DNA of 60,153 bases, taken from assembly GCF_036702645.1 (NCBI RefSeq), contig NZ_JAUBUO010000016.1, forward strand, positions 92,186 through 152,338. Reading direction: 5' to 3'. The notes under the pieces were generated by a model. The model saw only the letters and a program-made list of their open reading frames with translations, made no database searches and was not told the DNA's origin. The translations under genes and the position numbers were made by a program. The stretch's first letter is position 1, and each line of letters opens with the position of its first letter. Shown piece by piece: positions 20,695 through 52,051 of this stretch. This stretch comes from Microcoleus sp. Aus8_D1 (GTDB lineage: Bacteria > Cyanobacteriota > Cyanobacteriia > Cyanobacteriales > Microcoleaceae).

Positions 20695-20742
20695 ACTGTG
20701 TGTTGAAGCTATCTTATTAACTCTAGTTATCATCTAAAAATA

Positions 20743-22985: not shown

Positions 22986-22991
22986 TTTGAA

Positions 22992-24335: not shown

Positions 24336-24548
24336 TATATAACCAAAGCTATGTATAGCCTTTCTCACAAAGGTGAGGTATGCCAGATTCTATGTACATC
24401 AAGGTTTTCGACCTTTGATATATACCTCATCTATCTGAGAACCGCTATATGTTCTTTATTGGCCCAGCAAAATAAGTCCTTTTTGTATTAAAATTAATAT
24501 CAGACAAATCGATGTATGCTAAGATAGTGCAGAAATAAAATTAAAACT

Positions 24549-25718: not shown

Positions 25719-25890
25719 AAATTTACCACCACATTGAATTAGTTGTCATCCAAAGGTGAATAATATGATAGGTAATTTTTTTTATGCTACATATCATCAG
25801 AGAACTTTCAACAGGCGGTACAGATAAAATGCTTTATAATTGGCTATTCTGGGATAAATTTGCTCAATTTTTATAGGTTTAGAGAATTAA

Positions 25891-27840: not shown

Positions 27841-27856
27841 GTCACAAAGCCAACTT

Positions 27857-28999: not shown

Positions 29000-29149
29000 A
29001 TTCTGCAAAATTATGATGAGCGGTTAGTCTTCCAGCGACCAGCAGAATTTTATCGGGAATTAGGCGTATCCTATCTTGAAATTGCTGACTTATGAGTACA
29101 GAGATGAAGCCCATAGTTAGGTCAAGGAAGTTTTTTCCAAGTTTATGTT

Positions 29150-29986: not shown

Positions 29987-30607
29987 GGTAGTTTTTTTGT
30001 AAACTTATACTCTTGATTGTTTGCACCTAATCTTAACACGTCCGTGAAATTGTCGGAGCGAGAATTCGTTACTCATTACCAAAATTTAATAATTCTTAAT
30101 ATTTTTGACTTGCGTAAATAATTTGATACAAAAAATAACTATTTTTGACATAAATCAACTTAGCTTGTGCAATGATTTACTCATTTGCCTCTATAATGGT
30201 AATTGTTTGTGGGTATCGCCATTTGTTTTTTTTACTGCAATACTTAGATATATAGCGGTTCTCACCAACATGAGGTGTACCAGATTCTATGAATTTCAGG
30301 ATTTTCGAGCATTTGTCTGTACCTCACCTACCTGAGAAAGGCTATAGTGGCGATCTCGATTTACATCCATTTACATATGTATCGTCCTGAAGATGCTTCC
30401 ATCATGGCAAAGCGCGGACGAGAAGGAATGACGGAGTATGGATTGCCACAGATCCTGAAAGTATATGAAGCTCTTTATACTGAAGCTCTATCGGTGTAAA
30501 TTATGCAGTCTTTTATTAAATTAAGAAACTTAGATATTAGAAATGACCAATGATTCAATAGCGATTCAACCGAACATGAAATTACTTATTATTTAGGAGT
30601 GCATAAA

Positions 30608-31681
30608 ATGCAAATTCAAGTAATTGGTTTATCAGACTCTTTGTGGTTAGAGACTCTGCAAAAAATTCGCCACGATATCTATCATTTGCCTGAATATCTA
30701 TATTTGGAGTCGATTCGGAACAACGCCCTAGCAGAAGCTATTGTGATAGCTGAAGATGACAAAATCTTTTTTATACCTTATTTTTTGCGTCCGTGCTATG
30801 ATATATTTGACCAAAGCTTGGCAACACAAGATGTTTTTGATGTTGTCTCCCCTTATGGTTATCCAGGAATTCTGTTGAGTGAGAAGGCAGCTAGTACAAA
30901 AGATTTTTTAGAGTTGGCAATGAATCAGCTAATCTCTGTATTGCGTGCCAAGGGAGTCTGTTCGGCATTTTTTCGGCTGCATCCGATACTTAACAGCGGA
31001 TTTAAGGAAATTTTATCGCCCGATATTTGCAAATTAAATGGAGAAACTGTATCTGTGAATTTGAAACTCTCCGAAGCGGAAATATGGAGTCAAACTAGAT
31101 CGGAACACCGCACGAGTATTAATAAGTTAAAGCGCTCTGAGATGACAGCAAAAATCGTTCCATTTCAGGACTATATCAGCGAGTTTATTTCGATTTACCA
31201 TGAAACAATGGATCGGGTAGAGGCTGGGCGATCGTACTATTTTGATGATGAATATTTTTCACATTTCTCTAAACTAGGTGAAAAAGTTCACTTGTGTATA
31301 GTATAATTAGAGGATAAAGTTACTTGTTCAGGGATATTTACCGAGTGTTGTGGAATAATTCAATATCACTTGGGAGGAACCAGAAGCGAGTTTTTTAAAC
31401 AAGCACCTAGCAAACTGATGTTTGATTATATTCGATTCTGGGCTAAAGAACGCGGCAATCAACTTTTTCATCTAGGGGGAGGTTTAGGAGGTTTCCAGGA
31501 CAGTCTCTACCATTTCAAGGCAGGTTTTTCCAAGCAAAGACATACTTTTTTGACGCTGCGGATAATTACAGAGCGAACTAAATATCTCGAACTGATTGAA
31601 CTGCGTGCAAGATTTTTGAACACAGAAGCAGATAAACTGCTAGTTACGGATTTTTTTCCGGTCTATCGTTCTCTTTATTGA
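30608..31681 (+). pseudogene. FemAB/CelD-like GNAT acyltransferase, interrupted by an in-frame TAA at 31306-31308; paralogue of 33999..35063
   Basis: ORFs 30599..31306 and 31370..31681 are colinear and in frame with the intact paralogue. The single nonsense codon falls where the paralogue has Glu (HLCIV*LEDKVTCSG vs HLCMVELNGEITCGG). Confidence 0.65.
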
Positions 31682-31691
31682 TGGTAAGTTT

Positions 31692-32450
31692 ATGAGTGAC
31701 AACAAGGAAGTTTACAGCACTGTAGCATTTGAGGAGTGGGCTTATAAAAAACGTTTACTCACTCAGGAAAAATTTTTGCTCGAAAACTATTTAGATAAAA
31801 GAGCAAAAACTTTAGAAGCTGGAACCGCAGGAGGAAGAATTTTGTTAGAGATGAAAAAAATTGGTTTTACATCTCTTTACGGTTATGACTACGTGCCAGA
31901 ATTCATTGAGCAGGCAAGACAGAAAGATTCGAGCGGCAGTATTTATTTTGAGGTGGAGGATGCAACTAGATTAAATTACAAAGATAATGATTTCGATCAG
32001 ATCATTTATTTACAGCAAATAATTTCTTCTATTGATGATGCCGAAGCCAGGTTAAAAGCCCTGAAGGAGGCTTATCGAATTCTCAAAAATGAGGGAACGG
32101 CTTTATTTTCGTTTCTAAGTTTTGATGCCAGAAAGAGCAGTGTTATGTATTCGTTGTTCTTGATGTATTTGGGTATGTTTAGGAATTTGCGGGGATCGAA
32201 TCGGACAATTCAGTATCTGCCTTGGCTTAAGCATGGTGGGAAAGTAAACTTGTCGGCGCTTGTCGATCGGGAACCTTATGTCTATTGGTACAAGGTTGAA
32301 GAGGTTTACCAGCTTTTAAGAGAAGTCAATTTTGAAGTGGTTGCTATTGGTTCTGATTTTCAGATTAAACAAGGCAAAATGCACCAGTCAATTGAAACAT
32401 TAGTCAAAGAACCGATTGCAGGGATGCTTTACTTTGTGTGCAAAAAGTAA
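31692..32450 (+). CDS. Class I SAM-dependent methyltransferase (paralogue of 35077..35838)
   Basis: LEAGTAGGRILLEMKKIGF motif I; ~60% identical to the downstream paralogue. Confidence 0.7.
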   Translation: MSDNKEVYSTVAFEEWAYKKRLLTQEKFLLENYLDKRAKTLEAGTAGGRILLEMKKIGFTSLYGYDYVPEFIEQARQKDSSGSIYFEVEDATRLNYKDNDFDQIIYLQQIISSIDDAEARLKALKEAYRILKNEGTALFSFLSFDARKSSVMYSLFLMYLGMFRNLRGSNRTIQYLPWLKHGGKVNLSALVDREPYVYWYKVEEVYQLLREVNFEVVAIGSDFQIKQGKMHQSIETLVKEPIAGMLYFVCKK

Positions 32451-32914
32451 ATTTTAGTTAATTAAGACTTTCGCACACCAAACATAGGCAAAAAATAGTT
32501 TAAGGTGGTATTAACTTGAGTTAAAGTATCAGGAATTACGCAGATACGCTATATACAACATATTCGATGTATATGTGATGCACAATCTTTTGGATCTACC
32601 TATGTAGCGGGTTTGCCAATAGTTGCTACTGTACTTCATAAACCTGGGATATGCTGTATATAGTGTTTTGTAGGGTAATCCGTGCGCGAGCGCCCCTATC
32701 CGTCAATGGAAAATAATGGTTTCAGACTACGAAATAAAAACTGTCCGAACTATTGATAAAGTGATATTCATAGTGTAGCAAAAGAAGGAGTAGTAACAAC
32801 AGAGATTTTAGACCATCCAGAGGAAGCTCAACATATGGGCAAGCGCGGACGAGAAAATATGGTTAATTATGACCTACCACATATCCTCAAGCAATACGAG
32901 GCTTTGTATGCTGA

Positions 32915-32948
32915 AGTCAACAATCAACAATCAACAATCAACAATCAA
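32915..32948. repeat. Heptanucleotide STR (CAATCAA)x4.5 ending 3 bp before the epimerase start
   Basis: gtcaacaatcaacaatcaacaatcaacaatcaaccc. Confidence 0.8.
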
Positions 32949-32951
32949 CCC

Positions 32952-33899
32952 ATGAGTAATATTGTTACAGGCGCGGCAGGTTTTATCGGCTCTAACTTAG
33001 TCGAAACTCTTTTAAACCAAGGTGAACAAGTAATCGGTGTTGATGAAGTCAACGATTACTACAATCCCGAATTGAAGAGAAAAAATCTCGCTCATTTTGA
33101 AAAAAATCCGAATTTTCAACTAATTGAGGGCAATATCTTATCTTTGGATTGGAAACCGCTATTAGCAAATGCAGAAGTCATTTACCACCAAGCAGCCCAA
33201 GCAGGAGTCCGTGCTAGTTGGGGAGACGGTTTCCGCAGCTATACGGAACGCAATATCAATGCAACTCAGGTACTCCTAGAAGCCGCAAAAGATGCACCGC
33301 AACTGAAAAAGTTTGTATTGGCTTCGTCTTCGTCGGTGTACGGCAATGCTGAAACTTTTCCTACTTCCGAAACTGCCTGCCCTCAACCAGTTTCTCCCTA
33401 CGGGATTACCAAATTAGCCGCTGAACGTTTGGCTTCGCTTTATCATCACAATTTTGGCGTTCCCGCAACCATGCTGCGGTATTTCACTGTTTACGGGCCT
33501 CGCCAGCGTCCCGATATGGCATTTCACATATTTTTTAAGTCAATTTTGCGCGGCGAAGCGATTTCAATTTACGGAGACGGACAGCAAACGCGAGATTTTA
33601 CATTTATCAGCGATTGCGTTGCCGCTAATTTAGCTGCCGCTAAAGTGCCGGAAGCTGTCGGGGAAATATTTAATATTGGAGGGGGAAGTCGAGTTGCTTT
33701 GGCGGAAGTTATTCAGACTATGGAAAGCATTGTCGATCGCCCGATTCGCATCAATTACCTAGAATCGAGCAAAGGAGATGCGCGAGATACTAGCGCTGAC
33801 GTATCGAAAGCTCAGAAAATCTTGGGATATCAGGCACAGGTTTCTTTGAGGGAAGGGTTGAAGCAAGAATGGGAATGGGTGCAGTCTTTGTACGGCTAG
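32952..33899 (+). CDS. NAD-dependent nucleotide-sugar epimerase/dehydratase (extended SDR)
   Basis: MSNIVTGAAGFIGSNL Rossmann motif and YGITK catalytic YxxxK. The ORF-track extension back to 32835 is a fossil of a GT4 C-terminus. Confidence 0.85.
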   Translation: MSNIVTGAAGFIGSNLVETLLNQGEQVIGVDEVNDYYNPELKRKNLAHFEKNPNFQLIEGNILSLDWKPLLANAEVIYHQAAQAGVRASWGDGFRSYTERNINATQVLLEAAKDAPQLKKFVLASSSSVYGNAETFPTSETACPQPVSPYGITKLAAERLASLYHHNFGVPATMLRYFTVYGPRQRPDMAFHIFFKSILRGEAISIYGDGQQTRDFTFISDCVAANLAAAKVPEAVGEIFNIGGGSRVALAEVIQTMESIVDRPIRINYLESSKGDARDTSADVSKAQKILGYQAQVSLREGLKQEWEWVQSLYG

Positions 33900-33998
33900 A
33901 AGGTGCTGAACCTACTCATCTGCTGAAGTGCTAAGTCAGCAGATGAGGTTATATGCACAGTAAATCTTCGCGAATAATCAACTTAAAATTATCAAGCC

Positions 33999-35063
33999 AT
34001 GAAAATCCAATTTATTGATTTAAGCAGTCCTTTGTGGCTAGAAACTCTGGATAATCTCAGACATGATTTTTATCATTTACCTGGCTATGTGGATTTAGAA
34101 GCAAAAAGAACCGAAGCAACCGCAGAAGCTATTTTGATTGCTGATGATGACAAAATATTCTTTTTGCCTTATTTATTGCGAAAGTGCAATAATTTATTTG
34201 CAGAGACAGTAGAAGTTTTTGATGTTATATCGCCCTATGGCTATCCGGGATTTTTGTTAAATGAAGCCGCAGCTAGCACTCCTGATTTTTTTATCTTGGC
34301 AATCGAAAATTTAACACAGGCCTGGCGCGATCGCAATATTTGTTCGGCTTTTTTACGGCTGCATCCTATTCTCAACAAGGATGTTAATACTTCGATAAAC
34401 AATGACTTGTTTACACTCAATGGAGAAACAGTTTCTGTAGATTTAACACTCGAACGAAGTGAAATATGGAGTCAAACTCGCTCTGAACATCGCAATAAAA
34501 TAAATAGATGCGTCCGCGAAGGTTTTTCGGCTAAAATGGTTCCTATTCAGGAATATATTAATGATTTCAACGCGATTTATGAGGAAACAATGGCTCGGGT
34601 TGGGGCTGCAAAGTTATATTATTTCGGAACTAATTATCTGGTAAAACTCATCGATGTATTAGGAGATAAATTGCATTTATGTATGGTAGAATTGAATGGA
34701 GAAATTACCTGTGGTGGTTTGTTTACTGAGTGCTGCGGCATCGTTCAGTATCATCTGGGTGGTACGAAGTCAAGCTTTTTGAAACAAGCACCCACTAAAC
34801 TAATGTTTGATTATGTTCGATTCTGGGCTAAGGAACGCGGTAATCAAGTTTTCCATCTAGGCGGTGGTTTAGGAGGTTCGCAAGATAGTCTCTACCATTT
34901 CAAAGCAGGTTTCTCTAAGCAAAGACACACTTTTTTCACCCGACGCTTAATTACAGATGAAGAAAAATATCTTCATTTAGTTAACCTACGTGCAAAATAT
35001 CTGAAGATCGAGGTGGAGCATCTACTGAATACCAATTTTTTCCCTGCATATCGCTCTAACTGA
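33999..35063 (+). CDS. FemAB/CelD-like GNAT acyltransferase, intact copy
   Basis: Conserved YHLGGTKSSFLKQAPTKLMFDYVRFWAKERGNQVFHLGGGLGGSQDSLYHFKAGFSKQ block typical of the FemAB-like Acetyltransf_6 family. Confidence 0.7.
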   Translation: MKIQFIDLSSPLWLETLDNLRHDFYHLPGYVDLEAKRTEATAEAILIADDDKIFFLPYLLRKCNNLFAETVEVFDVISPYGYPGFLLNEAAASTPDFFILAIENLTQAWRDRNICSAFLRLHPILNKDVNTSINNDLFTLNGETVSVDLTLERSEIWSQTRSEHRNKINRCVREGFSAKMVPIQEYINDFNAIYEETMARVGAAKLYYFGTNYLVKLIDVLGDKLHLCMVELNGEITCGGLFTECCGIVQYHLGGTKSSFLKQAPTKLMFDYVRFWAKERGNQVFHLGGGLGGSQDSLYHFKAGFSKQRHTFFTRRLITDEEKYLHLVNLRAKYLKIEVEHLLNTNFFPAYRSN

Positions 35064-35076
35064 TTAGGAGAATTGT

Positions 35077-35838
35077 ATGATGGACAACAAGCAAGTTTAC
35101 AGCACAGTAGAATTTGAGAGTTGGGCAGACAAAGAACAATTGATTGAGGAAGAAAAGTATCTAATAGAAACTTATTTAGCTCGAACAGGAAAAATACTCG
35201 AAGCTGGAACAGCAGGAGGAAGAATTTTATTAGAAATGAAACAGATGGGTTTTACATCTCTTGCCGGTTATGATTACGTGCCAGAATTTATTGAGCAGGC
35301 AAAAAAAAGAGATGCGACGCAGAGTATTTCTTTTGAAGTTCAGGATGCAACTAGCTTAAACTACGAAGATGCTAGTTTCGATCAGATAATTTATCTTCAA
35401 CAAATTATTTGTTTGATCGAAAATGATTCAAGCAGATTAAAGGCGATGGAAGAGGCTTATCGTATCCTCAAAATGGGGGGGATTGCATTATTCTCATTCC
35501 TCAGCTTTGAAACGAGAGTTAGAAGTCCCATCTACAAGTCATATTTATCTTATCTCAGCCTGATACGGAAGCTTCGCGGCTCAAATCGTTCTCTTCAATA
35601 TATTCCTTGGCTGAAGCTTGGTGGAAAACCAAACTGGTTATGCCTTCTGGATCGAGGCCCTTATCCTTATTGGTATCAAGTTGCAGAGGCTGAACAGATT
35701 ATAAAAAAAGTTGGTTTTCATGTAGTTGCTGTGGGTTCTAGTTATCAGATCAAACAAGAAGGAAGAATGCCAGAATCAATTGAAACATTAGCGAATGAAC
35801 GCCTACAAGGAATGCTTTACTTTGTCTGTAAAAAATGA
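35077..35838 (+). CDS. Class I SAM-dependent methyltransferase
   Basis: LEAGTAGGRILLEMKQMGF motif I. Confidence 0.7.
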   Translation: MMDNKQVYSTVEFESWADKEQLIEEEKYLIETYLARTGKILEAGTAGGRILLEMKQMGFTSLAGYDYVPEFIEQAKKRDATQSISFEVQDATSLNYEDASFDQIIYLQQIICLIENDSSRLKAMEEAYRILKMGGIALFSFLSFETRVRSPIYKSYLSYLSLIRKLRGSNRSLQYIPWLKLGGKPNWLCLLDRGPYPYWYQVAEAEQIIKKVGFHVVAVGSSYQIKQEGRMPESIETLANERLQGMLYFVCKK

Positions 35839-35855
35839 ATGATGAGCAATGAACC

Positions 35856-36494
35856 ATGAATAATCACCGATCGCCAATCACCAAATTCAGCAGATTAGTT
35901 AAGTGGGTATTAGATAGATTAGTTGCCGCGATCGCCCTACTAATTTTCTCTCCCATCGTTTTAATAGTGGCGATCGCCATTTACATCCGCATGGGTTCTC
36001 CCGTTGTGTTCACACAACCGAGGCCAGGTAAAGATAGCCACGTCTTCAAGTTCTACAAATTTCGCACGATGACGAGCGATCGCGATCGCGAAGGAAACTT
36101 GCTCCCCGACGAACAACGCCTGACTGCGATCGGTCAATTCTTGCGAAAAACCAGTTTGGACGAACTTCCCCAACTGTGGAATGTTCTCAAAGGCGACATG
36201 AGCTTTGTTGGCCCTCGTCCCTTGTTAGTACGATACCTAGAACGCTACAGCCCAGAACAAGCACGCCGCCATGATGTGATGCCCGGAATCACCGGGTGGG
36301 CCCAGGTGAACGGTCGCCGACTTCTAGATGGTAATTGGCCGGAGAAATTTAGGCTCGATGTTTGGTATGTGGATAATTGGAACCTGTGGCTGGATTTGAA
36401 AATACTTTTCCTGACAGTAGGTCAAGTCTTGGGACAAAAAGAAATCAGCCAAGAAGGTCATCTTACAAGTGAAGAGTTTAAAGGTAATGAATGA
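35856..36494 (+). CDS. Undecaprenyl-phosphate sugar phosphotransferase (PglC/WbaP C-terminal type; priming sugar transferase)
   Basis: Single N-terminal TM; KFRTM, DELPQLWNVLKGDMSFVGPRP. Confidence 0.85.
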   Translation: MNNHRSPITKFSRLVKWVLDRLVAAIALLIFSPIVLIVAIAIYIRMGSPVVFTQPRPGKDSHVFKFYKFRTMTSDRDREGNLLPDEQRLTAIGQFLRKTSLDELPQLWNVLKGDMSFVGPRPLLVRYLERYSPEQARRHDVMPGITGWAQVNGRRLLDGNWPEKFRLDVWYVDNWNLWLDLKILFLTVGQVLGQKEISQEGHLTSEEFKGNE

Positions 36495-40720: not shown

Positions 40721-40861
40721 ATACTGGGGGATTGTAGGGGCTTTCCCCCCGTGGTTGCCCCCTGCTGCTGCAGAAGAGTGGTTGCCCCCTGCTGCTGCAG
40801 AAGAGGGTAGGCACGGCGAGGCACTACCCCTACAAATTGTTCGCAATTCATAATTGAGGAC

Positions 40862-40925
40862 TATACCAATTCCCAATTCCCAATTCCCAATTCCCAATTC
40901 CCAATTCCCAATTCCCGATTCCCAA
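40862..40925. repeat. Heptanucleotide STR (CCCAATT)x~9, cyanobacterial STRR-like
   Basis: ccaattcccaattcccaattcccaattcccaattcccaattcccgattcccaattccc, ~45 bp upstream of the ugd start. Confidence 0.85.
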
Positions 40926-40970
40926 TTCCCATTCCTACCTGATTTATTTACTAACTTTGAGGAGATTTCT

Positions 40971-42457: not shown

Positions 42458-42928
42458 TTAGAAACTTTCCATTAAGGTTTTTTCTTGAGCGTAAACATCT
42501 CGTAGTTGTTGCAGTGCTGAGGCAGAAATTACCGATTTAACTGTAGCGACTAATGTACCCCATTCCAGCAAGCTGTCAACTGAAACAGCGGCTTTGAAGT
42601 TGTACGTATAGAATTTAGTCCAAAATTCTGGTGCTTGGGTGCGTTTCCAGCGTTTGTACCAGCCGAGAAAATCTTGAGCGCAGGCTGGTTTTACTTCTAA
42701 GATTGGGGGGAAATCGGCGTAGCTGACAAATCTACTCAGGCCTTTGGCGTGTACGTACACCATGTTGTGACAGCATTCGATTCGGTAAATTTGGTCGGGC
42801 GTGATGTTGAACAAAAGTGCTACTGTTTCTTCGGTGACAAATCTCGATCGCGGATTGACTATTGACGATTTGTGAATAATTTTTGAGGCGCCGATCGCTG
42901 ACGACCTTAACTGATTCTCTGATATCAT
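42458..42928 (-). CDS. Hypothetical protein, 156 aa
   Basis: Clean ORF with HIP1 sites; no recognisable family. Confidence 0.4.
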   Translation of the reverse strand: MISENQLRSSAIGASKIIHKSSIVNPRSRFVTEETVALLFNITPDQIYRIECCHNMVYVHAKGLSRFVSYADFPPILEVKPACAQDFLGWYKRWKRTQAPEFWTKFYTYNFKAAVSVDSLLEWGTLVATVKSVISASALQQLRDVYAQEKTLMESF

Positions 42929-43093
42929 TGTAGTTGCATCTGGTGGTGGTAGCTCAATCTATCTGCTAGGTGCGACCGACTGAAATTATCTGTCAGAATT
43001 AATTTTAACAGGCGATCGCCTTTAGTTTCGCTGACCGGGGGCGATCGCTTTTTGCTATATTATACTAAATCCAAAATTTTGTAAATAGTTTAT

Positions 43094-43312
43094 ATGAGTA
43101 AAGGTTTAGTCAGGTTGCGGGTTCGAGAGTTGGCGGCCGAGAAGGGATGGACGCTGAAGGAGGTTGCGGAGCGATCGGGCGTCGGCTACAGTACGATTAG
43201 CAATTATGCCCGCTCTCAGGGGATGGCGATGGTTGACTTTGCGGCAGTGTACAAGTTGGCCCGCACCTTTGATGTGCTGATTGAGGATTTTGTGATCATC
43301 ATGGAAAAGTAG
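43094..43312 (+). CDS. XRE-family HTH transcriptional regulator, 72 aa
   Basis: KGWTLKEVAERSGVGYSTISNYARSQ is an HTH_XRE signature. C-terminus resembles that of 10327..10524. Confidence 0.65.
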   Translation: MSKGLVRLRVRELAAEKGWTLKEVAERSGVGYSTISNYARSQGMAMVDFAAVYKLARTFDVLIEDFVIIMEK

Positions 43313-43423: not shown

Positions 43424-43745
43424 AGGGTGTGTCGCCTGCGAAGAATCCCTAACTAAATATCGAAAATCTCAAAGCTCCGCACCTGTCAACTCGCCCGATC
43501 GCCAATAAAGTCGATCGCCTACAATCAAGTATTCGGGTGTGTCGCCACAAAAAATCCTTAGCCAAACATGAAAAATCTCAAAGCGACGCACCTGTGAACT
43601 CGCCCGATCGCCAATAAAGTCGATCGCCTACAATCAAGTATTCGGGTGTGTCGCCACAGAAAATCCTTAGCCAAACATCGAAAATCTCAAAGCGACGCAC
43701 CTGTCAACTCGCCCGATCGCCACTAAAGTCGATCGCCTACAATCA
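43424..43745. repeat. Tandem array of ~3 copies of a 109-bp unit immediately upstream of the NACHT gene
   Basis: acctgt(c/g)aactcgcccgatcgccaataaagtcgatcgcctacaatcaag... recurs at 43481, 43590 and 43699. ORF 43320..43508 and the 43648 start extension are repeat artefacts. Confidence 0.85.
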
Positions 43746-43785
43746 AACTAACCCGCTTCGAGCAGCGCATCAGGAGAACCGTCAA

Positions 43786-46700
43786 ATGTCAGATCCGATT
43801 ACCTTGGGCTTGCTTTTCACAGTCGCTTGGCAAGGCATACTAGGAACTCAAGTTAATGATGCAGCAAAACATCTCTGTTTGACAGGCATTAAAAAGATAT
43901 CGCGAAACGGTAAAATTGTCAATCACGATTTAGAAAAAGCGCTGAAAACATCTTTCCTGAAAGCTCAGCAGCAAATCGCCTCAGAATGCAAGCAGGAAAT
44001 CGATCCGAAAAATAGCGCTAACCGAGAGAGTTTTAGCTATTCGCTGCAAGACAGGCGGCGCGATTTTGATTGGTTGAAACGAAAGCTCGAAAAGCTCAAA
44101 TTAGATTTAGAACAGGTTAATAAAGAAACAGTCCCGTCTGGGATTCCGATTGAGGGTTTAGATGAGATAGAATTGCTGCTGACTGCCACAGATGAGTTAA
44201 AGCAGAATCGGGTAGCAGCAGTTGAGCAAAAATTGCTGGAAGTTGCCCTCGAAAATTGCGATGTCGCACATTACAAAACGAAGTTAGAGCAAGAGTTGTT
44301 TGCCTTGGTGGCTGCATACTTTGCTCAAGAAATCAAGGAAAATGAAAAGGTTTTTCAGATATTCACCGGGCAAACTTTGACGCGAATTGATACCACAACC
44401 CAAGAGATGTATGCTTGGCTTGAGGAGATTGTGCAAAAGAGCCGCATTGTTTACCAACCGATTGACTGGCGGGCTATTTGTCAGCAGATTTTAGACGAGA
44501 AAGAACAGCAGCGGCTCAGTAGCAATCAGCTAACTTTTGGCGATCGTCAAATTGATGATGTTTATGTGCCGCTGGGATTGGTTGAACGGCACAAAGTGAC
44601 TCAGCGCCGGGAGGATTTGGCGGCGGAGGAAGGTTCGGATTTGTACCGGGAAAAAGAAGTAACTCAAACCTTTGAAAATAAGGAGTTTCTGGAGCAAGTT
44701 TTGCGGGGAGGAAGTAGCCCGAAGAGCAATGGGAAGCGGTTAGCAATTATTGGGGAACCGGGGGCGGGGAAAACTACGCTGTTGCGGCAGATTGCTAATT
44801 GGGTGGCGGAGGAAATTTCCGAGGCGATTGTTATTTGGGTTGCTTTGGCGGATTTGCAGGGGAAAGATTTAGAATCGTATTTATTTGATACTTGGTTGCT
44901 GGCGGCAATTAAGAGGGTTGGGAAAGCTGAGGCGACGGCGGATATTAAAGATGATTTTTTAGCACAGTTTAATGCTGAGCGGGTTTGGTTGGTGTTGGAT
45001 GGCGCGGATGAGATGGCTGCGGGTGATGGGAATCCTTTGGCGGAAATTCAGCGACAAGTTAGAACGGGCGGCTGTGTTCAAAGGGCGCGGATTGTGCTAA
45101 GTTGTCGGCAGAATGTTTGGGATGCGATCGGCTCTGCCTTGGATACTTTTGATACTTATCGTACTCTGGAGTTTTCCTATCCCGAACAGGTGGAAATGTT
45201 TATCGATAAGTGGTTTGGAACCCCCCCTAACCCCCCCTTGCTAAGGGGGGGGACAAGAGAAGAAGGGGATACTTTTGCTCGTGGTTTATCAACGCAGGCG
45301 ACAGGAGAAGGGAACACTCTTACTCCCCCCTTAGCAAGGGGGGCTGGGGGGGTTCTTCCTCCCTCCATCCCAACCCAAAATACAGAAGAAACTCTTACTC
45401 CCCCCTTAGCAAGGGGGGCTGGGGGGGTGCTTTCCCAACAGCTACGGGAAGCATTAGCAGCATCGGGGAAAGAGCGAATTCAAGACTTAGTAAAAAATCC
45501 GCTGAGATGTTCGCTGCTGTGCGGTACTTGGCAGTCGTTGGATGGGGATTTGCCGGATACTAAGGCTAAGCTTTATCGGCGGTTTGTGACTGCTTTGTAT
45601 CAGTGGAAGGAACCGCGCCTGAATTGGAGTCAGCAGCAGGATTTGAATGCGGCTTTGGGGAAATTGGCTCTGGCTGGGATGTTAAATGAAACGGATCGGT
45701 TTCAGTTACGAGAAAGTGTGGGATATCGGGTGATGGGTGCATCGCAGTTTGAGATAGCTTGCCGCTTGGGTTGGCTGAATTTGGTGGCGAGGGATGCGGA
45801 GACGGCGGAAGGGATTTATGCTTTTTATCATCCGACTTTTCAGGAATATTTTGCGGCGTTGGCGGCTGAGGATTGGCATTTTTTCTTGAATCATTTTCCT
45901 GGGAATCCGCAGCATCCTGATGCTCGATATCGGATTTTTGAGAAGCAGTGGAAGGAGGTTATTTTGCTGTGGTTGGGCCGTGAGGAGGTTGGGAAGGAGG
46001 AGAAGGAAGCGTTTATTAAGGCGTTGGTTGAGTTTGAGGATGGGTGTGGTAAATTTTATGGAGATCGGGCATATTTTCTCGCGGCTGCGGGGATTGCTGA
46101 GTTTAAGGATTGCAGTTTTGCTGATGAGATTGTGTCGCAGGTTATTAAGTGGGGGTTTGGTTATTTTGATGAGGAAAAGCAGGAGTGGCAAACATTTATC
46201 GCTCCACTGGCAGAGAGTTCATGGGATATACTGAAGGAGACGGATCGGAAAAGGGCGATCGTAGCTTTAGTTGAGTCAATCCGCAATTCAGGTAATGAAA
46301 AAACCCGGTGGATAGCGGCAAATATATTAGGGGAAATAAGCAAAGATAATCCAGTTGCGATCGAAGCTTTCGTCGAGTTAATCCGTAATTCTCAGGATGA
46401 AAATACCCGGAGGGAGGCGGCAGCTAGCTTAGGAACAATAGGCAAATCTAACCCTGTTGCGATCGAAGCTTTAGTCGAGTTAATCCGTAGTTCTCAGGAT
46501 GAAGATACTTGGAAGCAAGCGGCAAAAAGCTTAGGAGAAATAGGTGAAGATAACCCAGTTGCAATCTCCGGGTTAGTCAAGTTAATTCGCAATTCAGGCG
46601 AACAAAATACCCGGATGACAGCGGCAAATAGCTTAGGAAAAATTGACATAAATAACTTAGTTATACTTGTAAATTTTGATGAACTGAGTGCTACTTCTGA

Positions 46701-47607
46701 AGATGACAATACGATGATTAAATTGGCATATAGCTTGTCAAAATCAGTAACAAACAACTCTCTGATACTCGCAAATTTAGATAATTGCGACGAGCTTATT
46801 GGTACTTCTGAGGATGACAATACCTGGAGAAATGCCCTAAATATCTTAGGAAAAATCGAAAAAGATAACTCAGTTGCGCTCTCAGCTTTAGTCGAGTTAA
46901 TCGGTACTTTTCAGGATAAAAATACCCGGAGGAGAGCGACTGTAAGCCTAGGGCAAATATGCAAAAACAACCCGGATGCGATCGCCGCTTTAGTCGAGTT
47001 AATCAGCAATTCAGGTGATAGACATATCCGTAGTATAGCGGCAGATAGCTTAGGTGAAATCATGAAAGATAAACACTTCGCGATCGCAGTCTCTGGTTTG
47101 AAAGATTGCCTAACTTCCGAAATCTACAAAAACGACTTTACTCTTTATCACAAGTGCTGCCTCGTCATCTCTGACTGTGCCCAAAGCAAGACTTACCCAG
47201 AATTTTATCAAGCATGGCACACTCAACCCACCAATTCCCCAATACCGGACAACCACCCACAAAATCCAGATATCCCCACACTCCTAAAACAACTCAAACC
47301 CACAGATAAAACCTTCCCCGTACCCCTCAACATTCGCGCGTTAGAAGGCGAAACCGATATAAGCCCGATCGCCCAAGAACTCTGTACCCAACTATATCAA
47401 ACAATCTTCCCCGCAGATACAGACATCCCCGCCATCCGCAACGCCCCGGAATTCAAGCGATTAATCCCCCAACTCAAACACCGGCTGCAAAAACCGCACA
47501 TCGCCTTAATCTTGCACTCGTGCCCGTGCGAAAATGCGCTTTCGTCTTTCACCCGCAAACTCGCCGACTCTCACATGGGTATTCATATCGCCTGGATTAG
47601 CGATTAA
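43786..47607 (+). CDS. STAND NTPase: unknown N-terminal domain + NACHT + C-terminal HEAT (PBS-lyase-type) repeats
   Basis: Walker A GEPGAGKTTLLRQIANW and Walker B VWLVLDGADEM. At least 8 HEAT-like repeats (AIEALVELIRSSQDEDTWKQAAKSLGEIG...). Start at Met47 of the track ORF, after the CAGGAGAA RBS. Confidence 0.85.
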   Translation: MSDPITLGLLFTVAWQGILGTQVNDAAKHLCLTGIKKISRNGKIVNHDLEKALKTSFLKAQQQIASECKQEIDPKNSANRESFSYSLQDRRRDFDWLKRKLEKLKLDLEQVNKETVPSGIPIEGLDEIELLLTATDELKQNRVAAVEQKLLEVALENCDVAHYKTKLEQELFALVAAYFAQEIKENEKVFQIFTGQTLTRIDTTTQEMYAWLEEIVQKSRIVYQPIDWRAICQQILDEKEQQRLSSNQLTFGDRQIDDVYVPLGLVERHKVTQRREDLAAEEGSDLYREKEVTQTFENKEFLEQVLRGGSSPKSNGKRLAIIGEPGAGKTTLLRQIANWVAEEISEAIVIWVALADLQGKDLESYLFDTWLLAAIKRVGKAEATADIKDDFLAQFNAERVWLVLDGADEMAAGDGNPLAEIQRQVRTGGCVQRARIVLSCRQNVWDAIGSALDTFDTYRTLEFSYPEQVEMFIDKWFGTPPNPPLLRGGTREEGDTFARGLSTQATGEGNTLTPPLARGAGGVLPPSIPTQNTEETLTPPLARGAGGVLSQQLREALAASGKERIQDLVKNPLRCSLLCGTWQSLDGDLPDTKAKLYRRFVTALYQWKEPRLNWSQQQDLNAALGKLALAGMLNETDRFQLRESVGYRVMGASQFEIACRLGWLNLVARDAETAEGIYAFYHPTFQEYFAALAAEDWHFFLNHFPGNPQHPDARYRIFEKQWKEVILLWLGREEVGKEEKEAFIKALVEFEDGCGKFYGDRAYFLAAAGIAEFKDCSFADEIVSQVIKWGFGYFDEEKQEWQTFIAPLAESSWDILKETDRKRAIVALVESIRNSGNEKTRWIAANILGEISKDNPVAIEAFVELIRNSQDENTRREAAASLGTIGKSNPVAIEALVELIRSSQDEDTWKQAAKSLGEIGEDNPVAISGLVKLIRNSGEQNTRMTAANSLGKIDINNLVILVNFDELSATSEDDNTMIKLAYSLSKSVTNNSLILANLDNCDELIGTSEDDNTWRNALNILGKIEKDNSVALSALVELIGTFQDKNTRRRATVSLGQICKNNPDAIAALVELISNSGDRHIRSIAADSLGEIMKDKHFAIAVSGLKDCLTSEIYKNDFTLYHKCCLVISDCAQSKTYPEFYQAWHTQPTNSPIPDNHPQNPDIPTLLKQLKPTDKTFPVPLNIRALEGETDISPIAQELCTQLYQTIFPADTDIPAIRNAPEFKRLIPQLKHRLQKPHIALILHSCPCENALSSFTRKLADSHMGIHIAWISD
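45232..45425. repeat. Three copies of a near-palindromic mini-element CCCCCCTT(A/G)GC(A/T)AAGGGGGG embedded in frame in the NACHT gene
   Basis: 45232-45252 in one orientation; 45315-45352 and 45388-45425 as a 38-bp direct repeat in the other. They encode PPLLRGG / PPLARGAGG. Confidence 0.75.
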
Positions 47608-47640
47608 GCAGGCGAAAACCATGTTATACTGATTTTATGG

Positions 47641-47666
47641 TTTAACCCCTTAAATAAGGGGTTAAA
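47641..47666. repeat. Island palindrome family, copy 1 (TTTAACCCCTTAAATAAGGGGTTAAA)
   Basis: Perfect 11-bp arms. Related copies at 49302, 51469, 51682, 54661 and 57558. Confidence 0.8.
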
Positions 47667-47750
47667 TACCAGGCACATTCTAGTCATTATCTAGAAAGTA
47701 TCTAGAAACCCAGAACCTTGACAAACCAATAGTCACAGAGAGAACCTACC

Positions 47751-49202
47751 ATGAAAGCTCAATCTCAAAAGGCACAGTCCGCTTGTGATGTATCTGTTTA
47801 CTCTGACAAAGGGTCACTCGCCTTGCGCTTCCCCAAGCGCCATAGCACCCTGTGGGAGCTACTAGACGGTAAATCACTCAAGGGTAAGCCTAAGTGCTTA
47901 GGAATAGGCAAATACGGCTACTCTGATACCCCAGAGGATTGGAAGCGGGCTAGCCAAATTGCTGCTGCGATGGAGGCTGATTTAGACCATCCAGAGTGGG
48001 AAAAGCTGTTTGACCCTACCCTTGCTAAATATGGCTTAGGAGGGGGCAAATATGCTAAGTTAGCTGATGTACTTCAATTGCCGGGTACGACTCAAACCGT
48101 ACCTGAGATAACCGTAGGTGCGATGTGGGAAGCATATCTATTGTGGAAAAAAACAACCATAGAAGAAACTACTTTTGACACAACGTACAAAAAATATGGC
48201 AACATAATTTACGGTAAAATTTTTCAAAACAAGGGTAGTCAGTTGACACTATCTGACAACCCGCTAGCTACCGTTCATTTAAATGACAAACAGGGTATTG
48301 AAACCGCGCTTGATTCAATAACATCCAAACTCAAAACTTTGAGTTTGAGAGCGTTAAATCAAGCCTTTGAGTATGCCCAATCAAAAGGATTAATCGTTAA
48401 TTCGGCTACTAACAATCCTTTTGCTACTAACAAATTTAGCGTACCTGTTGTCACAACACAGCAAAAGTATGCTGACAAAGTAGTTAATGGTGAGATTGTA
48501 GAATGGCATGAAGTAGAGGATGAGAAAGCTTTAGAGAATGATAAGCGTGCCTTTACTAAGGATGAACGTGATATCATCATCAAAGCGTTTTATGAGTCTG
48601 ATAGCAATAGAACTCGCAAAGGTTCTATCATGTTTGCACCGTTTATCGAATTTCTGTTTTTAACGGGTTGTCGCCCTAGCGAAGTTTATGCACTAACTTG
48701 GCGTGACGTTAATTTTGAACGTCATGTTATCAAAATTAGTAAGTCACTAGGTGCTTCTACTCGCAAGGTTAAAAACACTAAGACGGGCGAGAGCCGCTTG
48801 TTTTATTTTGAAGATTTTGAACGTTTAAAAGCTTTGTTGTTAGAAATTAAAGGCGACAAAACAGAGGGTTTAATTTTTTCAAATGCCAATGGGGGGTATA
48901 TAGATACTTCTTCCCTAGGGAGAGTTTGGCGTGATTATGTAAAAAAACAAACTCTCAAATCAGGGGAAGAAGTAACGTATTTCTATCCCGGTATAGTCTC
49001 ACAATTGGCTCGTGAAGGCAAAATTAGTGGTTATTTAGCGTCCTATCATTGCCGTCACACTTACATCACGCTAACCGCGCAAGCTAATAGCCACAATAAC
49101 AACGCTCTGTTACGCATAGCTAGCAGTTGTGGCAACAGTGTGGATGTGATTCTAAGACATTACTTAGGTATTAATGAGTCAACAGAGTTAGTAGTAGTCT
49201 AA
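47751..49202 (+). CDS. int: Tyrosine-type site-specific recombinase / integrase
   Basis: Catalytic box SYHCRHTYITL (HxxR) and VILRHYLG (Tyr); LTGCRPSEVYALTWRDV arm. First gene of the HIP1-free, AT-rich region. Confidence 0.85.
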   Translation: MKAQSQKAQSACDVSVYSDKGSLALRFPKRHSTLWELLDGKSLKGKPKCLGIGKYGYSDTPEDWKRASQIAAAMEADLDHPEWEKLFDPTLAKYGLGGGKYAKLADVLQLPGTTQTVPEITVGAMWEAYLLWKKTTIEETTFDTTYKKYGNIIYGKIFQNKGSQLTLSDNPLATVHLNDKQGIETALDSITSKLKTLSLRALNQAFEYAQSKGLIVNSATNNPFATNKFSVPVVTTQQKYADKVVNGEIVEWHEVEDEKALENDKRAFTKDERDIIIKAFYESDSNRTRKGSIMFAPFIEFLFLTGCRPSEVYALTWRDVNFERHVIKISKSLGASTRKVKNTKTGESRLFYFEDFERLKALLLEIKGDKTEGLIFSNANGGYIDTSSLGRVWRDYVKKQTLKSGEEVTYFYPGIVSQLAREGKISGYLASYHCRHTYITLTAQANSHNNNALLRIASSCGNSVDVILRHYLGINESTELVVV

Positions 49203-49221
49203 CCCTACCCAGTACATACCT

Positions 49222-49249
49222 ACCTACCCTAACCCGGTAGGTTTTTTTG
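49222..49249 (+). terminator. Intrinsic terminator after the integrase gene
   Basis: ACCTACC-ctaaccc-GGTAGGT followed by TTTTTT. Confidence 0.55.
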
Positions 49250-49738
49250 TGCCTACTTACTGAGTGAACCTGTAGGTCATATCATCAGTAAATATATAAC
49301 TTTATCCCCCCCAATATGGGGGGATAAATAATAAAAATATTACAGCTACTAATCAAAACTGAACCCCCCTATATTTAAATAGATAAGTTTTATTAATGAA
49401 GTGAGTCGCTATCCTTTCCCTTCATTTTTTGCAATTTATAATCACTCATGCTCTTAATCGCCACAGAAACAGCCATTTTTGCCTCCTTTAAGGCTTGAAA
49501 GGTACAAAACCCTGGGGGGGATTTATTTTTCTTTACTACCTCTTTCTACCCACTATTTTTGTATCTCTCTGTTCATGTTTTTTATCTAGTTAGTTAGTTC
49601 TAATGCAATATTTCCGTTACATTGATTTACAATTACTCTAATTTTAATATTAATAAAACTTATCTATTGTACTCCCCTATACTCGTAAATGTTTACAAAT
49701 CTTACATATGTACATCACTTAAATAACACTGTTTAATG

Positions 49739-49767
49739 TTGACAACGATGTTACCAACCTATAAAGT
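49739..49767 (+). promoter_or_regulatory. Near-consensus sigma70-type promoter TTGACA-N17-TAAAGT inside the gene-poor AT-rich stretch
   Basis: Seen directly. No plus-strand ORF for ~800 bp downstream, so it may drive an ncRNA, possibly antisense to minus ORF 49862..50101. Confidence 0.3.
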
Positions 49768-50556
49768 TCCGTAATCCTGTACTACTAAATCCGCTTTATT
49801 TACCCACAAAAAAGTAGACCAACTGAGATTGACCTACTTTGATTTACGGTTTAATAGTGCTTTAGCCGTTACAGTAAACAAAACGGATAATAGCACCTTG
49901 TGGTTTCAAATGTTGGTTGTGTTCGTCTAATTTAATTTTCCACCATCTCCGACGGCATCTATCAATTATGCTATCGCCATCCTTAAGCGCTTCTAGCTTA
50001 TAAGCAGGGACGTACCTATTCTTTGTCAGGTAATGAGATGTTACTATGTGTTCCCAATAATGGGGCATAGAGACGGGTGTATTCTCGTAATTCACAATCA
50101 TTCTGCCACTTCCTTGTTCAGAATACTTTGCGCTTAAATCGCTGGCTGTTTTCAGTATATGTCAAAATATTTCAAAACCATATAGGTTTACAAAATCAGT
50201 ATAGCGTTAAAATGGACTAAAACAGGGTGTAAATAGTAAATATAAAAATAGCCAATAAAAAACCCTCCTATTCAACTTTTTTGTACCTTTTAGTCTAATT
50301 AAGTAAGCTATAATAAATAAACCATATTAGCGACTTACGCTACAAACAAAGGTTATATAACGAACTTTTATTTTTTCTGTACCATTACCCGTAACAAAAC
50401 TTTACAGAACTTAACGGTTATACCGTTGACAAGCGGCTGCAAACCTGCAATCGTGAGTAACTAAGGAAGATTGATGCGCGGTAATGCGGTTTTGACGAAC
50501 CACACTAACCACGACTTCCCCAAACGTTTACAACCAACGATTGGAACAGAATAACT

Positions 50557-51162
50557 ATGACAGATTTACCGTTATCAAGTGATTTGCGATCGCAAATCGT
50601 AACGTCCGCGTTAGAAGAGCGAGAAGAATACTGTTCGGCACGTAAAAGCCTAGGTTTCAACTCAGGTTTTGTTTTTGGTAACTTGGGTGCTGGGAGTTTC
50701 GAGTTCTACAAACAGCTTGCTAAGAAACTAAATATAGATTCCTATGCAAAATGTTTCGGCAATGTAACCATGACTGAAACATGGAAACGTCTAGTGCATT
50801 ATGAGGGTGAGTTTCCTCCTCCTGAATCGATAGAGCGAACAGAGCGAAAAGCGAAGTTACCGAATGAGAGTCCACATATCGCTCTTAAAAAAGCGACTGT
50901 AATGGAGGAATACTTAGGGAATTCCGACAAAGCTCAAATAAACATGGTAACTGACATCACCCCACAAAGTATTTTACAGTTACCGATATTGCCTCTTTCT
51001 TCACTCCATTTTTTACCTCCTTCTCGTGGTTTGTTCTTTGTGATGGTAAGCAAAACAGAACCAAAAGTTATTTATGTAGGCAAATCTCAAAACTTAAAAG
51101 TTTCTTGGGAACCTGTTTATACCCGTAGCAGGTGTCCAATTGCAGGACACAGAAAGCGATAG
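50557..51162 (+). CDS. Hypothetical protein with a GIY-YIG-like C-terminal motif, followed in the same frame after one TAG by ORF 51172..51402
   Basis: LFFVMVSKTEPKVIYVGKSQNLKVSW resembles the GIY...YVG motif. 51172 is in frame with 50557, so this may be a disrupted gene. Confidence 0.35.
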   Translation: MTDLPLSSDLRSQIVTSALEEREEYCSARKSLGFNSGFVFGNLGAGSFEFYKQLAKKLNIDSYAKCFGNVTMTETWKRLVHYEGEFPPPESIERTERKAKLPNESPHIALKKATVMEEYLGNSDKAQINMVTDITPQSILQLPILPLSSLHFLPPSRGLFFVMVSKTEPKVIYVGKSQNLKVSWEPVYTRSRCPIAGHRKR

Positions 51163-51400
51163 GTAACTACCTTGACCAACTTAGGACTTGACTTGTATAT
51201 TAGGTGGATACTTTTACCCGGCGGTAACGAACCTTCTGTGTGGCAAGAAGACATTGACAGTAGCCAACTTTCTTTGTGGCAAGCTCACGCCAACAAAGTG
51301 CTTAGTCCCTTCTTTTTGGGTAGGGAAATAGGAGATGAAATTACTTTAGACTGGGATTTACCAATGCCTCGCCACTGGCAACAAATCTCTAGAAAAGAGT

Positions 51401-51884
51401 AAGTTTGTCAGGTTAGGTAAAGTTAATATGCTAATGAGTCCTTTGGGTAGGGGGACTCATTTTTATTGTTTATCCCCTTATTTAAGGGGTTAAAGTTAAA
51501 TAATAGATTATCAATTATCCTACATATTTTTACTCTCACCAAGTCGAAAATCACTACTCTAGAGTCTGCCAAGCATAGCGATATTTGTACTTTGTGTTAT
51601 GGCCTAAAATCAAAACCGGGTTTTTCACCCCAAAACGTCATTTTAATTTTTTATAAATGGGGGTTTTGGGAGTGTTTATGATTTATCCCCTTATTTAAGG
51701 GGTTAAAGTTAAAGTGCAAGATACTAAGCTAGATTTTAGAGGGTGTGGTGTCTAGATTATGCCTAGAAAGTGACAAGCCACAATTAAGCAATCTCAACAA
51801 CTAGGATAACGTAAATAGGTTAAATGACTAGAAAGTATCTAGAAATCAAGGATAGGATGGCTGAAAGCATTGGTAAATGGTAAC
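51401..51884. repeat. Left arm of the long inverted repeat flanking ppk; carries a 195-bp insertion (51496..51690) bounded by duplicated palindromes
   Basis: Reverse complement of 54487..54753 aligns at >95% identity apart from the insertion. Confidence 0.85.
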
Positions 51885-52051
51885 TAATCTGGATTAGCGC
51901 CACACCGCTGGAATTGCCGTTAACAGGTTTTGCGGTGGATGCAGAGGATTTGTTGGAGGCGGTGCAGGATTGGATTGCGGGGATTGGTGCGTGATATGAT
52001 GTTATGCCTTTGGGGCGGGCTAGAAGCCCACCCCACAAGAGTTTATACTCG

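Follow-up and report, generated by a model that had tools for sequence, protein, structure and literature searches.

A gene of Microcoleus sp. Aus8_D1, located at positions 43786 to 47607 of the 60,153-nucleotide stretch of DNA analyzed here (hereafter the window), encodes a predicted NLR-like protein in which a helical N-terminal domain is followed by a NACHT NTPase module, a HEAT-repeat array and two small C-terminal modules. Judging from its sequence, the N-terminal domain represents a real, modular family placed in the effector position of many STAND NTPases, and its extreme N-terminus fits the MEPIS signature of the Bell/HeLo-type membrane-targeting death domains. We propose, as a possible but still tentative reading, that the protein is a single-polypeptide NLR-like receptor whose oligomerization would deploy a membrane-disrupting N-terminal effector. 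The immune receptors of animals, plants and fungi are considered to descend from NLR-like proteins of bacteria. For most of the cyanobacterial ones, the unannotated N-terminal domains give no indication of how the protein kills or signals.

Gene model and domain organization

The gene is a single uninterrupted open reading frame (ORF). Its longest version in the mechanical ORF list begins with a GTG at 43648, but this extension crosses a 109-bp tandem repeat, which creates a spurious longer ORF. The ATG at 43786 is the better start, because a GGAG is found 8 nt upstream, because the corresponding Met is the start in all orthologs, and because distant members of the N-terminal family align from the same Met. 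The gene and its product (positions in amino acids, aa) are organized as follows:

43786-47607, forward strand: NLR-like gene in Aus8_D1, 1273 aa plus stop, C-terminus cut by an island
43786-44463, forward strand: N-terminal helical domain, putative effector, aa 1-226 (profile search, AlphaFold2 model)
43795-43851, forward strand: helix 1, aa 4-22, PITLGLLFTVAWQGILGTQ, preceded by M-S-D; hydrophobic, Gly-rich, MEPIS-like
44464-44739, forward strand: NACHT-associated linker, aa 227-318 (IDWRAICQQ ... VYVPLGLVER), common to protein P0026
44740-45216, forward strand: NACHT NTPase core, aa 319-477 (Pfam NACHT)
45217-45435, forward strand: in-frame hypervariable loop, aa 478-550, with repeats PPNPPLLRGGTRE and, twice, TLTPPLARGAGGVL
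45436-46245, forward strand: helical/winged-helix part of the NACHT module, aa 551-820 (sequence reading)
46246-47070, forward strand: HEAT-repeat array of eight 34-aa units, putative sensor, aa 821/822-1095 (Pfam, Tandem Repeats Finder, repeat model)
47134-47220, forward strand: NCC-H module, aa 1117-1145 (Pfam PF22730)
47302-47604, forward strand: NCAB1 module, truncated, aa 1173-1273 (Pfam PF22724)

The gene had first been described from its sequence, without database searches, as a NACHT-HEAT STAND NTPase (the original prediction), and the NACHT assignment was borne out. Pfam NACHT matched aa 319-477 with 46.6 bits (E = 4.4e-12, cut-off 26.7), and the two motifs on which the prediction relied are found at aa 323-331 (Walker A, GEPGAGKTT, positions 44752-44778) and aa 400-410 (Walker B, VWLVLDGADEM, positions 44983-45015, with D-G-A-D-E at aa 405-409). 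Both parts of the signature defined by Kibby et al., Walker A GxxxxGK[ST] and Walker B D[GAS]hDE, are satisfied. The SCR motif of the NACHT core lies at 45091-45114 and a FYHPTFQEYFAA motif at 45823-45858, in the helical/winged-helix part, which is 76-93% identical among orthologs. Downstream of the HEAT repeats, Pfam also recognized NCC-H (32.9 bits, E = 5.2e-8, cut-off 27) and NCAB1 (46.6 bits, cut-off 27). The predicted layout, an N-terminal domain followed by NACHT and HEAT repeats, is thus right in that all three are present, but it overlooked these two end modules. From these matches, the product is assigned to the NACHT clade of STAND NTPases and, among bacterial NLR-like proteins, to the tripartite class with a 'hybrid' C-terminus, made of HEAT repeats and small end modules.

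No nuclease, TIR or protease domain is present in the protein, in agreement with the earlier statement that no canonical effector domain is recognizable at its N-terminus. PADLOC did not match any Avs or bNACHT model, its best hits (mad8, OloA and PtuA, E of at least 1e-4) covering only the P-loop/HEAT region, and NCBIfam matches were only at the level of the P-loop or repeats, with EruA at 25 bits for a cut-off of 1000. The original prediction also likened the protein to Avs-like antiviral STAND sensors and to NTPases of cyanobacterial conflict systems. This holds insofar as a NACHT NTPase with a repeat sensor is of a kind known from multicellular cyanobacteria and from NLR-related antiphage proteins, but membership of the Avs group found no support in PADLOC.

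Every ortholog contains, between IDKWF and QQLREAL, 42-109 aa of translated short repeats, corresponding to the hypervariable loop of the window protein. The repeat types (PPNPPLVRGGTRE, TLTPPLARGAGGVL, TAPTNPLNVGAVPPCPPS, GGHGGEGGHG) differ among orthologs, and the loop is always in frame, with no stop in any of them. Most public contigs of this gene break exactly at the loop, which explains the near absence of full-length relatives on record.

The N-terminal domain belongs to a widespread, apparently uncatalogued family

The original prediction described an unrecognized N-terminal domain of ~300 aa. No match was found for it in Pfam, PADLOC or NCBIfam, but the domain is shorter (~226 aa), because aa 227-318 constitute a NACHT-associated linker. 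This linker also occurs in P0026, a NACHT protein of Pyrinomonadaceae with a different, unrelated N-terminus.

A word-index search with the domain retrieved only Microcoleus/Tychonema relatives, and the same search with a diverse profile made few additions among its best 8000 candidates. An exhaustive HMMER profile search returned 200 cluster representatives at E<=1e-3, including 114 at E<=1e-10. These ~200 clusters are spread over filamentous cyanobacteria and Chloroflexota, with Xenococcaceae, Calothrix and Thermoflexus among the named sources, and the source names never mention the domain. It was N-terminal in 90 of 92 full-length matches. The modules found downstream in 42 long members were AAA_16 (15), NB-ARC (10), NACHT (9) and AAA_35 (3), as well as TPR arrays. 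The architectures comprised the domain followed by NACHT, by AAA_35, or by TRADD-N and NB-ARC, and also Trypsin-[domain]-TRADD-N-NB-ARC and Pkinase-[domain]-AAA_35. Kaur et al. (2021) describe what precedes TRADD-N as an effector/EAD slot. Stand-alone members of 217 aa and tandem-duplicated members were found too. In locus L046 (195-6275), one stand-alone 217-aa member converges with genes for a 1777-aa nSTAND1-WD40 protein and a KAP-like NTPase, a layout in which the module could be supplied in trans.

Structure prediction and a Foldseek search, both suggested with the original prediction, were carried out. When the alignment contained close orthologs alone (aa 1-315), the predicted local distance difference test score (pLDDT) was 39, and with a diverse 32-sequence alignment AlphaFold2 gave an all-helical model with pLDDT 80.8 and a predicted TM-score (pTM) of 0.73. 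The domain (~215-226 aa) comprises 7-8 helices and is modeled with confidence over aa 45-226. Residues 1-23 are of low confidence and include the first helix, which is possibly mobile and for which pLDDT is below 50 and the packing is unreadable. Foldseek against the PDB gave no match (best E 0.12, TM-scores <=0.27), and neither BFVD (viral structures) nor a PDB sequence-profile search matched the domain. No known non-effector signaling domain was identified in it. Pfam gave no consistent match over 32 family members. For Pfam NNH3 (PF22735) in particular, there was no match in the window protein, in 31 of the 32 members or in the ten most divergent members. The remaining member, P0067, is collinear with NNH3 (aa 38-122 against profile positions 42-123 of 213, E 1e-4, 22.8 bits for a cut-off of 27) and also shows a faint EAD5 match. 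The family appears to be uncatalogued in Pfam-A (2025 copy), PADLOC, NCBIfam, PHROGs and the PDB.

Across ~93 diverse members, conserved polar residues were observed at N46 (78%), D48 (71%), E182 (89%), K184 (77%) and N186 (84%), and the polar motifs VNHDL and F-A-x-E-I-K-x-N are conserved. Most of the conserved positions are residues of the hydrophobic core.

Helix 1 signature and proposed mode of action

The window protein starts with MSDPITLGLLFTVAWQGILG. More generally, the family start reads M-[ED]-P-[IL]-[TS] and leads into a helix of ~17 hydrophobic residues, in which Gly, Ala and Ser are frequent and which ends with ...SGI[IV]GNR[AT]D. An acidic residue is present at position 2-4 in 53 of 75 members, and the strict M[DE]P[ILVF] start was found in 20 of 73 members, compared with 0 of 349 background ORFs. 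The best 17-residue Kyte-Doolittle score is 1.7 on average in the family and 1.49 in the window protein. Bell, HeLo/HELL, MLKL and plant RPW8/Rx_N domains have in common a hydrophobic helix at the N-terminus, negatively charged at position 2 or 3, which heads NLRs of multicellular bacteria (Dyrka et al., 2020). A 2024 preprint, which named this motif MEPIS, reported that Bab, a Bell-type protein, takes part in abortive infection accompanied by membrane alteration, that G11K in helix 1 abolishes defense, that MEPIS also heads the antiphage NLRs Avast2 and bNACHT02/11/23, and that the likeness between subfamilies can be confined to helix 1 (bioRxiv 10.1101/2024.11.07.622273). Thus, the effector-slot position in many STAND architectures and the Bell/HeLo-type helix signature together point towards an effector role for the domain.

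In the mechanism that we propose, the HEAT array, possibly with the end modules, would keep the protein inactive until a non-self or damage cue binds, most plausibly a cyanophage protein. NTP-dependent oligomerization of NACHT would then cluster the N-terminal domains, and the hydrophobic, Gly-rich helix 1 (M-S-D-P-I-T-L-G-L-L...) would leave the helical core and insert into the membrane. The infected cell of the filament would be killed or arrested, as proposed for Bell/Bab, HeLo, MLKL and plant coiled-coil (CC) domains.

Several observations weigh against this proposal. Bell measures ~100 aa and Babybell ~80 aa, so that the domain is roughly double their size, and no fold or sequence link to Bell/HeLo was found beyond helix 1 by Foldseek, Pfam or PDB searches. 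A trypsin or kinase precedes it in three architectures, so that a free N-terminus is not obligatory. The window subfamily reads GTQVND in place of GNRAD, some orthologs have K and D within helix 1, and the score of the window helix is under the usual transmembrane threshold and lower than that of the family. Also, the gene has a fixed housekeeping position, between the exopolysaccharide cluster/ugd and ppk, and not in a defense island. To our knowledge, no phage-defense phenotype is on record for this clade. Finally, a passive sheath role leaves the conserved motifs VNHDL and F-A-x-E-I-K-x-N unexplained, and their conservation suggests that the body does more than sheath the helix. A more specific version of the proposal accommodates them: the N-terminal module would be a new, double-sized class of NLR death effector, in which a MEPIS-type helix is sheathed by a novel helical body with its own conserved polar site, and which plugs into NACHT, NB-ARC, AAA_16 and AAA_35, sometimes via TRADD-N. 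We regard this version as rather doubtful at present.

Among the alternatives, we give most weight to an adaptor or scaffold role, then to an enzyme of a new kind, a function outside immunity and a dead allele. As an adaptor or scaffold, the domain would engage in homotypic contacts of the NNH type or of the EAD/Death-like type, and would recruit a separate effector or aid oligomerization. The collinearity of P0067 with NNH3, whose profile has the same length as the domain, and its faint EAD5 match are consistent with such a role, as are the stand-alone and tandem-duplicated members, including the one convergent to the nSTAND1-WD40 gene. In the proteins where a trypsin or kinase comes first, these enzymes could be the true effectors. 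However, the NNH3 match does not reach the gathering score, concerns a single member out of 32, and was not found in the ten most divergent ones. The EAD principle is that the same domain is fused both to an NTPase and to separate effector-only proteins, and no effector-only carrier was seen among the 42 long members, in which the NTPase or repeats are always in cis. A conserved hydrophobic N-terminal helix is also atypical of Death-like adaptors. An adaptor function is, on this balance, a serious but rather unlikely explanation.

It is improbable that the domain is instead a new all-helical enzyme with the conserved polar residues as active site. Those residues are indeed conserved at 71-89%, and the domain fills the slot held by TIR, nuclease and protease effectors in other STAND proteins, but Pfam and PDB searches revealed no likeness in sequence or fold to known enzymes, the motifs match by direct reading neither the HEPN (R-x4-6-H) nor the HD signature, and most of the conserved positions belong to the hydrophobic core.

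The HEAT array as a putative sensor

At least 8 HEAT repeats of the PBS-lyase type had been predicted, and eight 34-aa units were identified at aa 822-1095 with our own repeat hidden Markov model (HMM). Pfam covers the array with four HEAT_2 stretches (E 1.3e-32) plus HEAT_PBS, and at the DNA level Tandem Repeats Finder (TRF) detected a 102-bp tandem period in 3.8 copies. The orthologs have 3-17 units. Positional entropy, computed over 159 ungapped units, showed that the scaffold positions are nearly invariant, below 1 bit (L28, 0; L8, 0.14; I31, 0.38), whereas positions 16, 19, 22, 23 and 26 are hypervariable (2.8-3.2 bits). Positions 19, 22, 23 and 26 are spaced i, i+3, i+4, i+7, and would thus lie on one helix face. 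This pattern fits a diversifying ligand-binding surface, and from it we infer selection.

NLRs of fungi and bacteria whose internal repeats are highly conserved likewise combine near-identical units with polymorphism in unit number and a small set of hypervariable positions on one face (Paoletti/Dyrka). The units of the present array, however, are of the HEAT/PBS-lyase type and not WD40, TPR or ANK.

Genomic setting, inheritance and allelic variation

The gene has the following neighbors:

42458-42928, reverse strand: 156-aa protein (orf156), divergent from HTH72
43094-43312, forward strand: 72-aa XRE-type helix-turn-helix (HTH) protein (HTH72), divergent from orf156; both are conserved beside the NACHT gene
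43425-43746, forward strand: 109-bp tandem repeat, 2.9 copies, 91% matches (TRF), in the 5' leader, with several CGATCG cores

In a scan of one genome per species, the same N-terminal region was encoded at 43 loci, which belong to Microcoleus, Tychonema, 'Lyngbya' CCAP 1446/10 and related metagenome-assembled genomes. The nearest are those of Microcoleus sp. MP8IB2.171 and A006_D1 (93-94% identity over the N-terminal 315 aa). The order epimerase-ugd-orf156(-)-HTH72-NACHT/HEAT-ppk is kept in most of the 43 loci (tblastn map), and the NACHT copy is in a rearranged context in L010 and L031. Further upstream, the window contains LepA and the exopolysaccharide cluster. Because synteny is conserved, we consider the gene to be vertically inherited host chromosomal DNA in a housekeeping neighborhood. 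The host origin stated in the original prediction is therefore upheld, but not the argument used for it: HIP1 octamers are a weak marker here, with 2 in the gene (0.52/kb) and 1 in the island (0.23/kb) for a window mean of 0.71/kb.

Despite this fixed neighborhood, the gene evolves like a conflict gene. Identity to the window is 94-97% in the flanking genes, 84-95% in the NACHT core, 59-95% in the N-terminal domain and 40-60% in the HEAT region. Five orthologs (L016, L029, L032, L034, L035) lack NCAB1 and end straight after NCC-H (...YPEFYQAWHA, then stop). They also hold the most HEAT units (14-17), and L032, L034 and L035 have the most divergent N-terminal allele (~60% identity). In four other loci the NACHT ORF stops early (L018, 919 aa; L031, 681 aa; L006, 520 aa; L022, 78 aa), and these short ORFs represent either pseudogenized alleles or assembly errors in repeat regions.

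This variation bears on whether the protein could rather be a housekeeping signaling ATPase of Microcoleus, tied for example to envelope polysaccharide or polyphosphate metabolism, and not an immune receptor. Such a role would agree with the place of the gene between the ugd/exopolysaccharide cluster and ppk in most loci, with the lack of a PADLOC hit and with the lack of defense genes among the neighbors at the locus. However, the array is hypervariable with a varying number of units, the N-terminal domain diverges much faster than the flanks, some strains carry alternative C-termini or apparently disrupted alleles, and the N-terminal family is paired with many different STAND cores. HEAT hypervariability, fast N-terminal divergence and variable C-termini are typical of conflict genes and not of housekeeping genes, so that a housekeeping role seems very unlikely to us.

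A three-gene system including orf156(-) and HTH72 was considered and rejected. The family of the orf156 protein is multi-copy in Microcoleus (275 hits, with several in each genome), and one paralog, together with three tandem HTH genes, is flanked by photosystem and CO2-uptake genes and has no NLR in its vicinity (L048). PADLOC, PHROGs and Pfam indicated no function for orf156 or HTH72 beyond the XRE-type HTH. We read the putative receptor as a single-gene system, since the orf156/HTH cassette is multi-copy and found without any NLR. In ten orthologous loci, the 109-bp repeat is present immediately before the start codon, as one copy or a partial copy. An Rfam scan of the 5' region gave only a sub-threshold match to Yfr19, a cyanobacterial small RNA (42975-43063, 26.7 bits for a gathering score of 70, E 0.14). 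It falls in the orf156/HTH intergenic region and is probably due to chance.

An integrative element within the 3' end of the gene

In the other genomes reaching this point, ppk follows ~0.2-1 kb after the NACHT gene, while in the window 4.29 kb of DNA at 38% GC are found in between:

47592-47602, no strand: left 11-bp direct repeat CTGGATTAGCG, island junction within the gene
47603-51888, no strand: integrative element, 4.29 kb, GC 0.383, absent from the orthologous loci reaching this point
47751-49202, forward strand: tyrosine recombinase/integrase, 483 aa (Pfam Phage_integrase; PHROG 1 integrase, E 2e-27)
49862-50101, reverse strand: 79-aa ORF, conserved companion of the integrase, with copies near related integrases
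51889-51899, no strand: right 11-bp direct repeat CTGGATTAGCG, the other junction
51890-51994, forward strand: displaced 3' remnant of the gene, WISATPLELPLTGFAVDAEDLLEAVQDWIAGIGA followed by a stop, whose translation corresponds to the ortholog C-termini

When the orthologous loci were compared by blastn, both junctions fell on the same 11-13 bases of the empty site, which is uninterrupted in nine orthologous loci, and the C-terminal tail is intact in the six that were translated. The orthologs end with ...HIAWITDTPLELPLTGFAADGEDLLEAVQDWIAGIGA and the window gene with ...HIAWISD, each before the stop. The NCAB1 match of the window protein spans profile positions 15-113 of 140, compared with 16-138 of 140 in ortholog P0027, and it ends at position 113 because the insertion removed the last 30 residues. 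The element is integrated within the gene, displacing its last 30 codons and truncating NCAB1. The original prediction had placed the gene exactly at, or adjacent to, the island junction: the junction is indeed at the gene end, but this was an understatement, as the island is inserted within the gene and cuts off 30 codons. As it has a tyrosine recombinase at one end, is flanked by direct repeats and corresponds to an empty site in relatives, it is a site-specific integrative element.

The catalytic half of the integrase is 26-32% identical to phage integrases of Leptolyngbya and Planktothrix, and related integrases (58-80% identical) were found in 11 metagenome contigs. Copies of the 79-aa ORF, 85-92% identical, lie near the related integrase in 5 of these 11 loci, and are therefore better conserved than the integrase itself. 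This ORF has no family match and may be an excisionase, a regulator or key cargo of the element. Recurrent targeting of NACHT 3' ends by this island family was considered and rejected, the 11 related loci having neither a NACHT flank nor the att core. Since none of the related integrases adjoins a NACHT gene, the insertion is a strain-specific event. Two other ORFs of the island, 50557-51162 (201 aa) and 51172-51402 (76 aa), had no match in Pfam, PADLOC or PHROGs. The low coding density of the island suggests a decaying element.

As the element truncates NCAB1, the Aus8_D1 allele may be impaired. A secondary reading is that insertion into the 3' end of the receptor is not neutral but would disable or retune an immune receptor. 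In the extreme case, removal of the NCAB1 end would have left a dead allele in Aus8_D1, that is, a decaying receptor. The 30 C-terminal residues conserved in orthologs are now 4.3 kb away, the NCAB1 match is incomplete, and apparently disrupted alleles exist elsewhere (those of 919, 681 and 520 aa in L018, L031 and L006). Nevertheless, the remaining 1273 codons are intact with all motifs kept, the five orthologs naturally without NCAB1 indicate that this module is dispensable in some lineages, and the insertion may be recent. We find complete loss of function a somewhat unlikely outcome.

Comparison with known systems

Among the closest systems are the bNACHT proteins of the 'hybrid' C-terminal class (Kibby et al., 2023, bioRxiv 10.1101/2022.07.19.500537), which likewise have an N-terminal module, a central NACHT with D[GAS]hDE, HEAT repeats and, after these, the small modules NCC-H and NCAB. 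The same study found cyanobacteria to be the richest source of bNACHT-type paralogs. However, the window protein is not matched by the PADLOC and NCBIfam models of tested bNACHT proteins or of EruA, and its N-terminal domain is not a Pfam NNH, EAD or bDLD at threshold. A literature search for NCAB1 returned no occurrences.

Bell, Babybell, HeLo, MLKL-4HB and plant CC domains are likewise located at the extreme N-terminus of NLRs in filamentous bacteria, with a Met, an acidic residue at 2-3, a Pro, a hydrophobic Gly-rich helix and an all-helical body. The Bell/HeLo type is a compact bundle of ~80-120 aa in which four helices cup helix 1, whereas the window domain has ~215 aa and 7-8 helices, is sometimes internal in its family, and is associated neither with an amyloid (BASS) motif nor with a two-gene effector/NLR arrangement. 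The domain may work like the Bell/HeLo superfamily but cannot yet be filed there.

NNH3 is also helical, has ~213 positions and lies N-terminal to NACHT. Avs proteins share with the window protein the STAND NTPase, a helical-repeat sensor and the N-terminal effector position, and Avast2 is reported with a MEPIS motif. In contrast to Avs, the window core belongs to the NACHT clade, and the gene is chromosomal, syntenic, vertically inherited and outside any defense island. By the tests that were run, the gene is assigned to neither the Avs families nor Pfam NNH3.

Significance and other observations of the window

The locus offers a widely distributed N-terminal family with a usable structural model and a helix signature that links it to the HeLo/Bell/MLKL/CC idea. 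In addition, alleles within a single genus form a natural series: they differ in the number of HEAT units (3-17) and in the presence of NCAB1, and one is truncated by a mobile element. Together, these features allow direct tests of the effector hypothesis and of what the C-terminal modules do. Should the domain prove active on membranes, a much larger and structurally different bacterial form would join the 'universal' helical death module.

Elsewhere in the window, the ORF at 14048-16855, in the exopolysaccharide cluster, encodes an unusual 935-aa fusion of Polysacc_synt_2 (CapD/WbpM-type nucleotide-sugar dehydratase) with a C-terminal EAL domain (cyclic di-GMP phosphodiesterase). At ~40860-40960, a short tandem repeat reading IPNSQFP three times on one strand and NWELGIG three times on the other inflates two mechanical ORFs. 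It is located just upstream of the true ugd start (MRVCVIGTG..., about 40968). Finally, the stretch 17000-36000 of the polysaccharide cluster has a low GC content of 34-41%, with a higher-GC block at 26-29 kb, compared with ~45-49% in the flanks, and may be a horizontally exchanged glycan-synthesis cassette.

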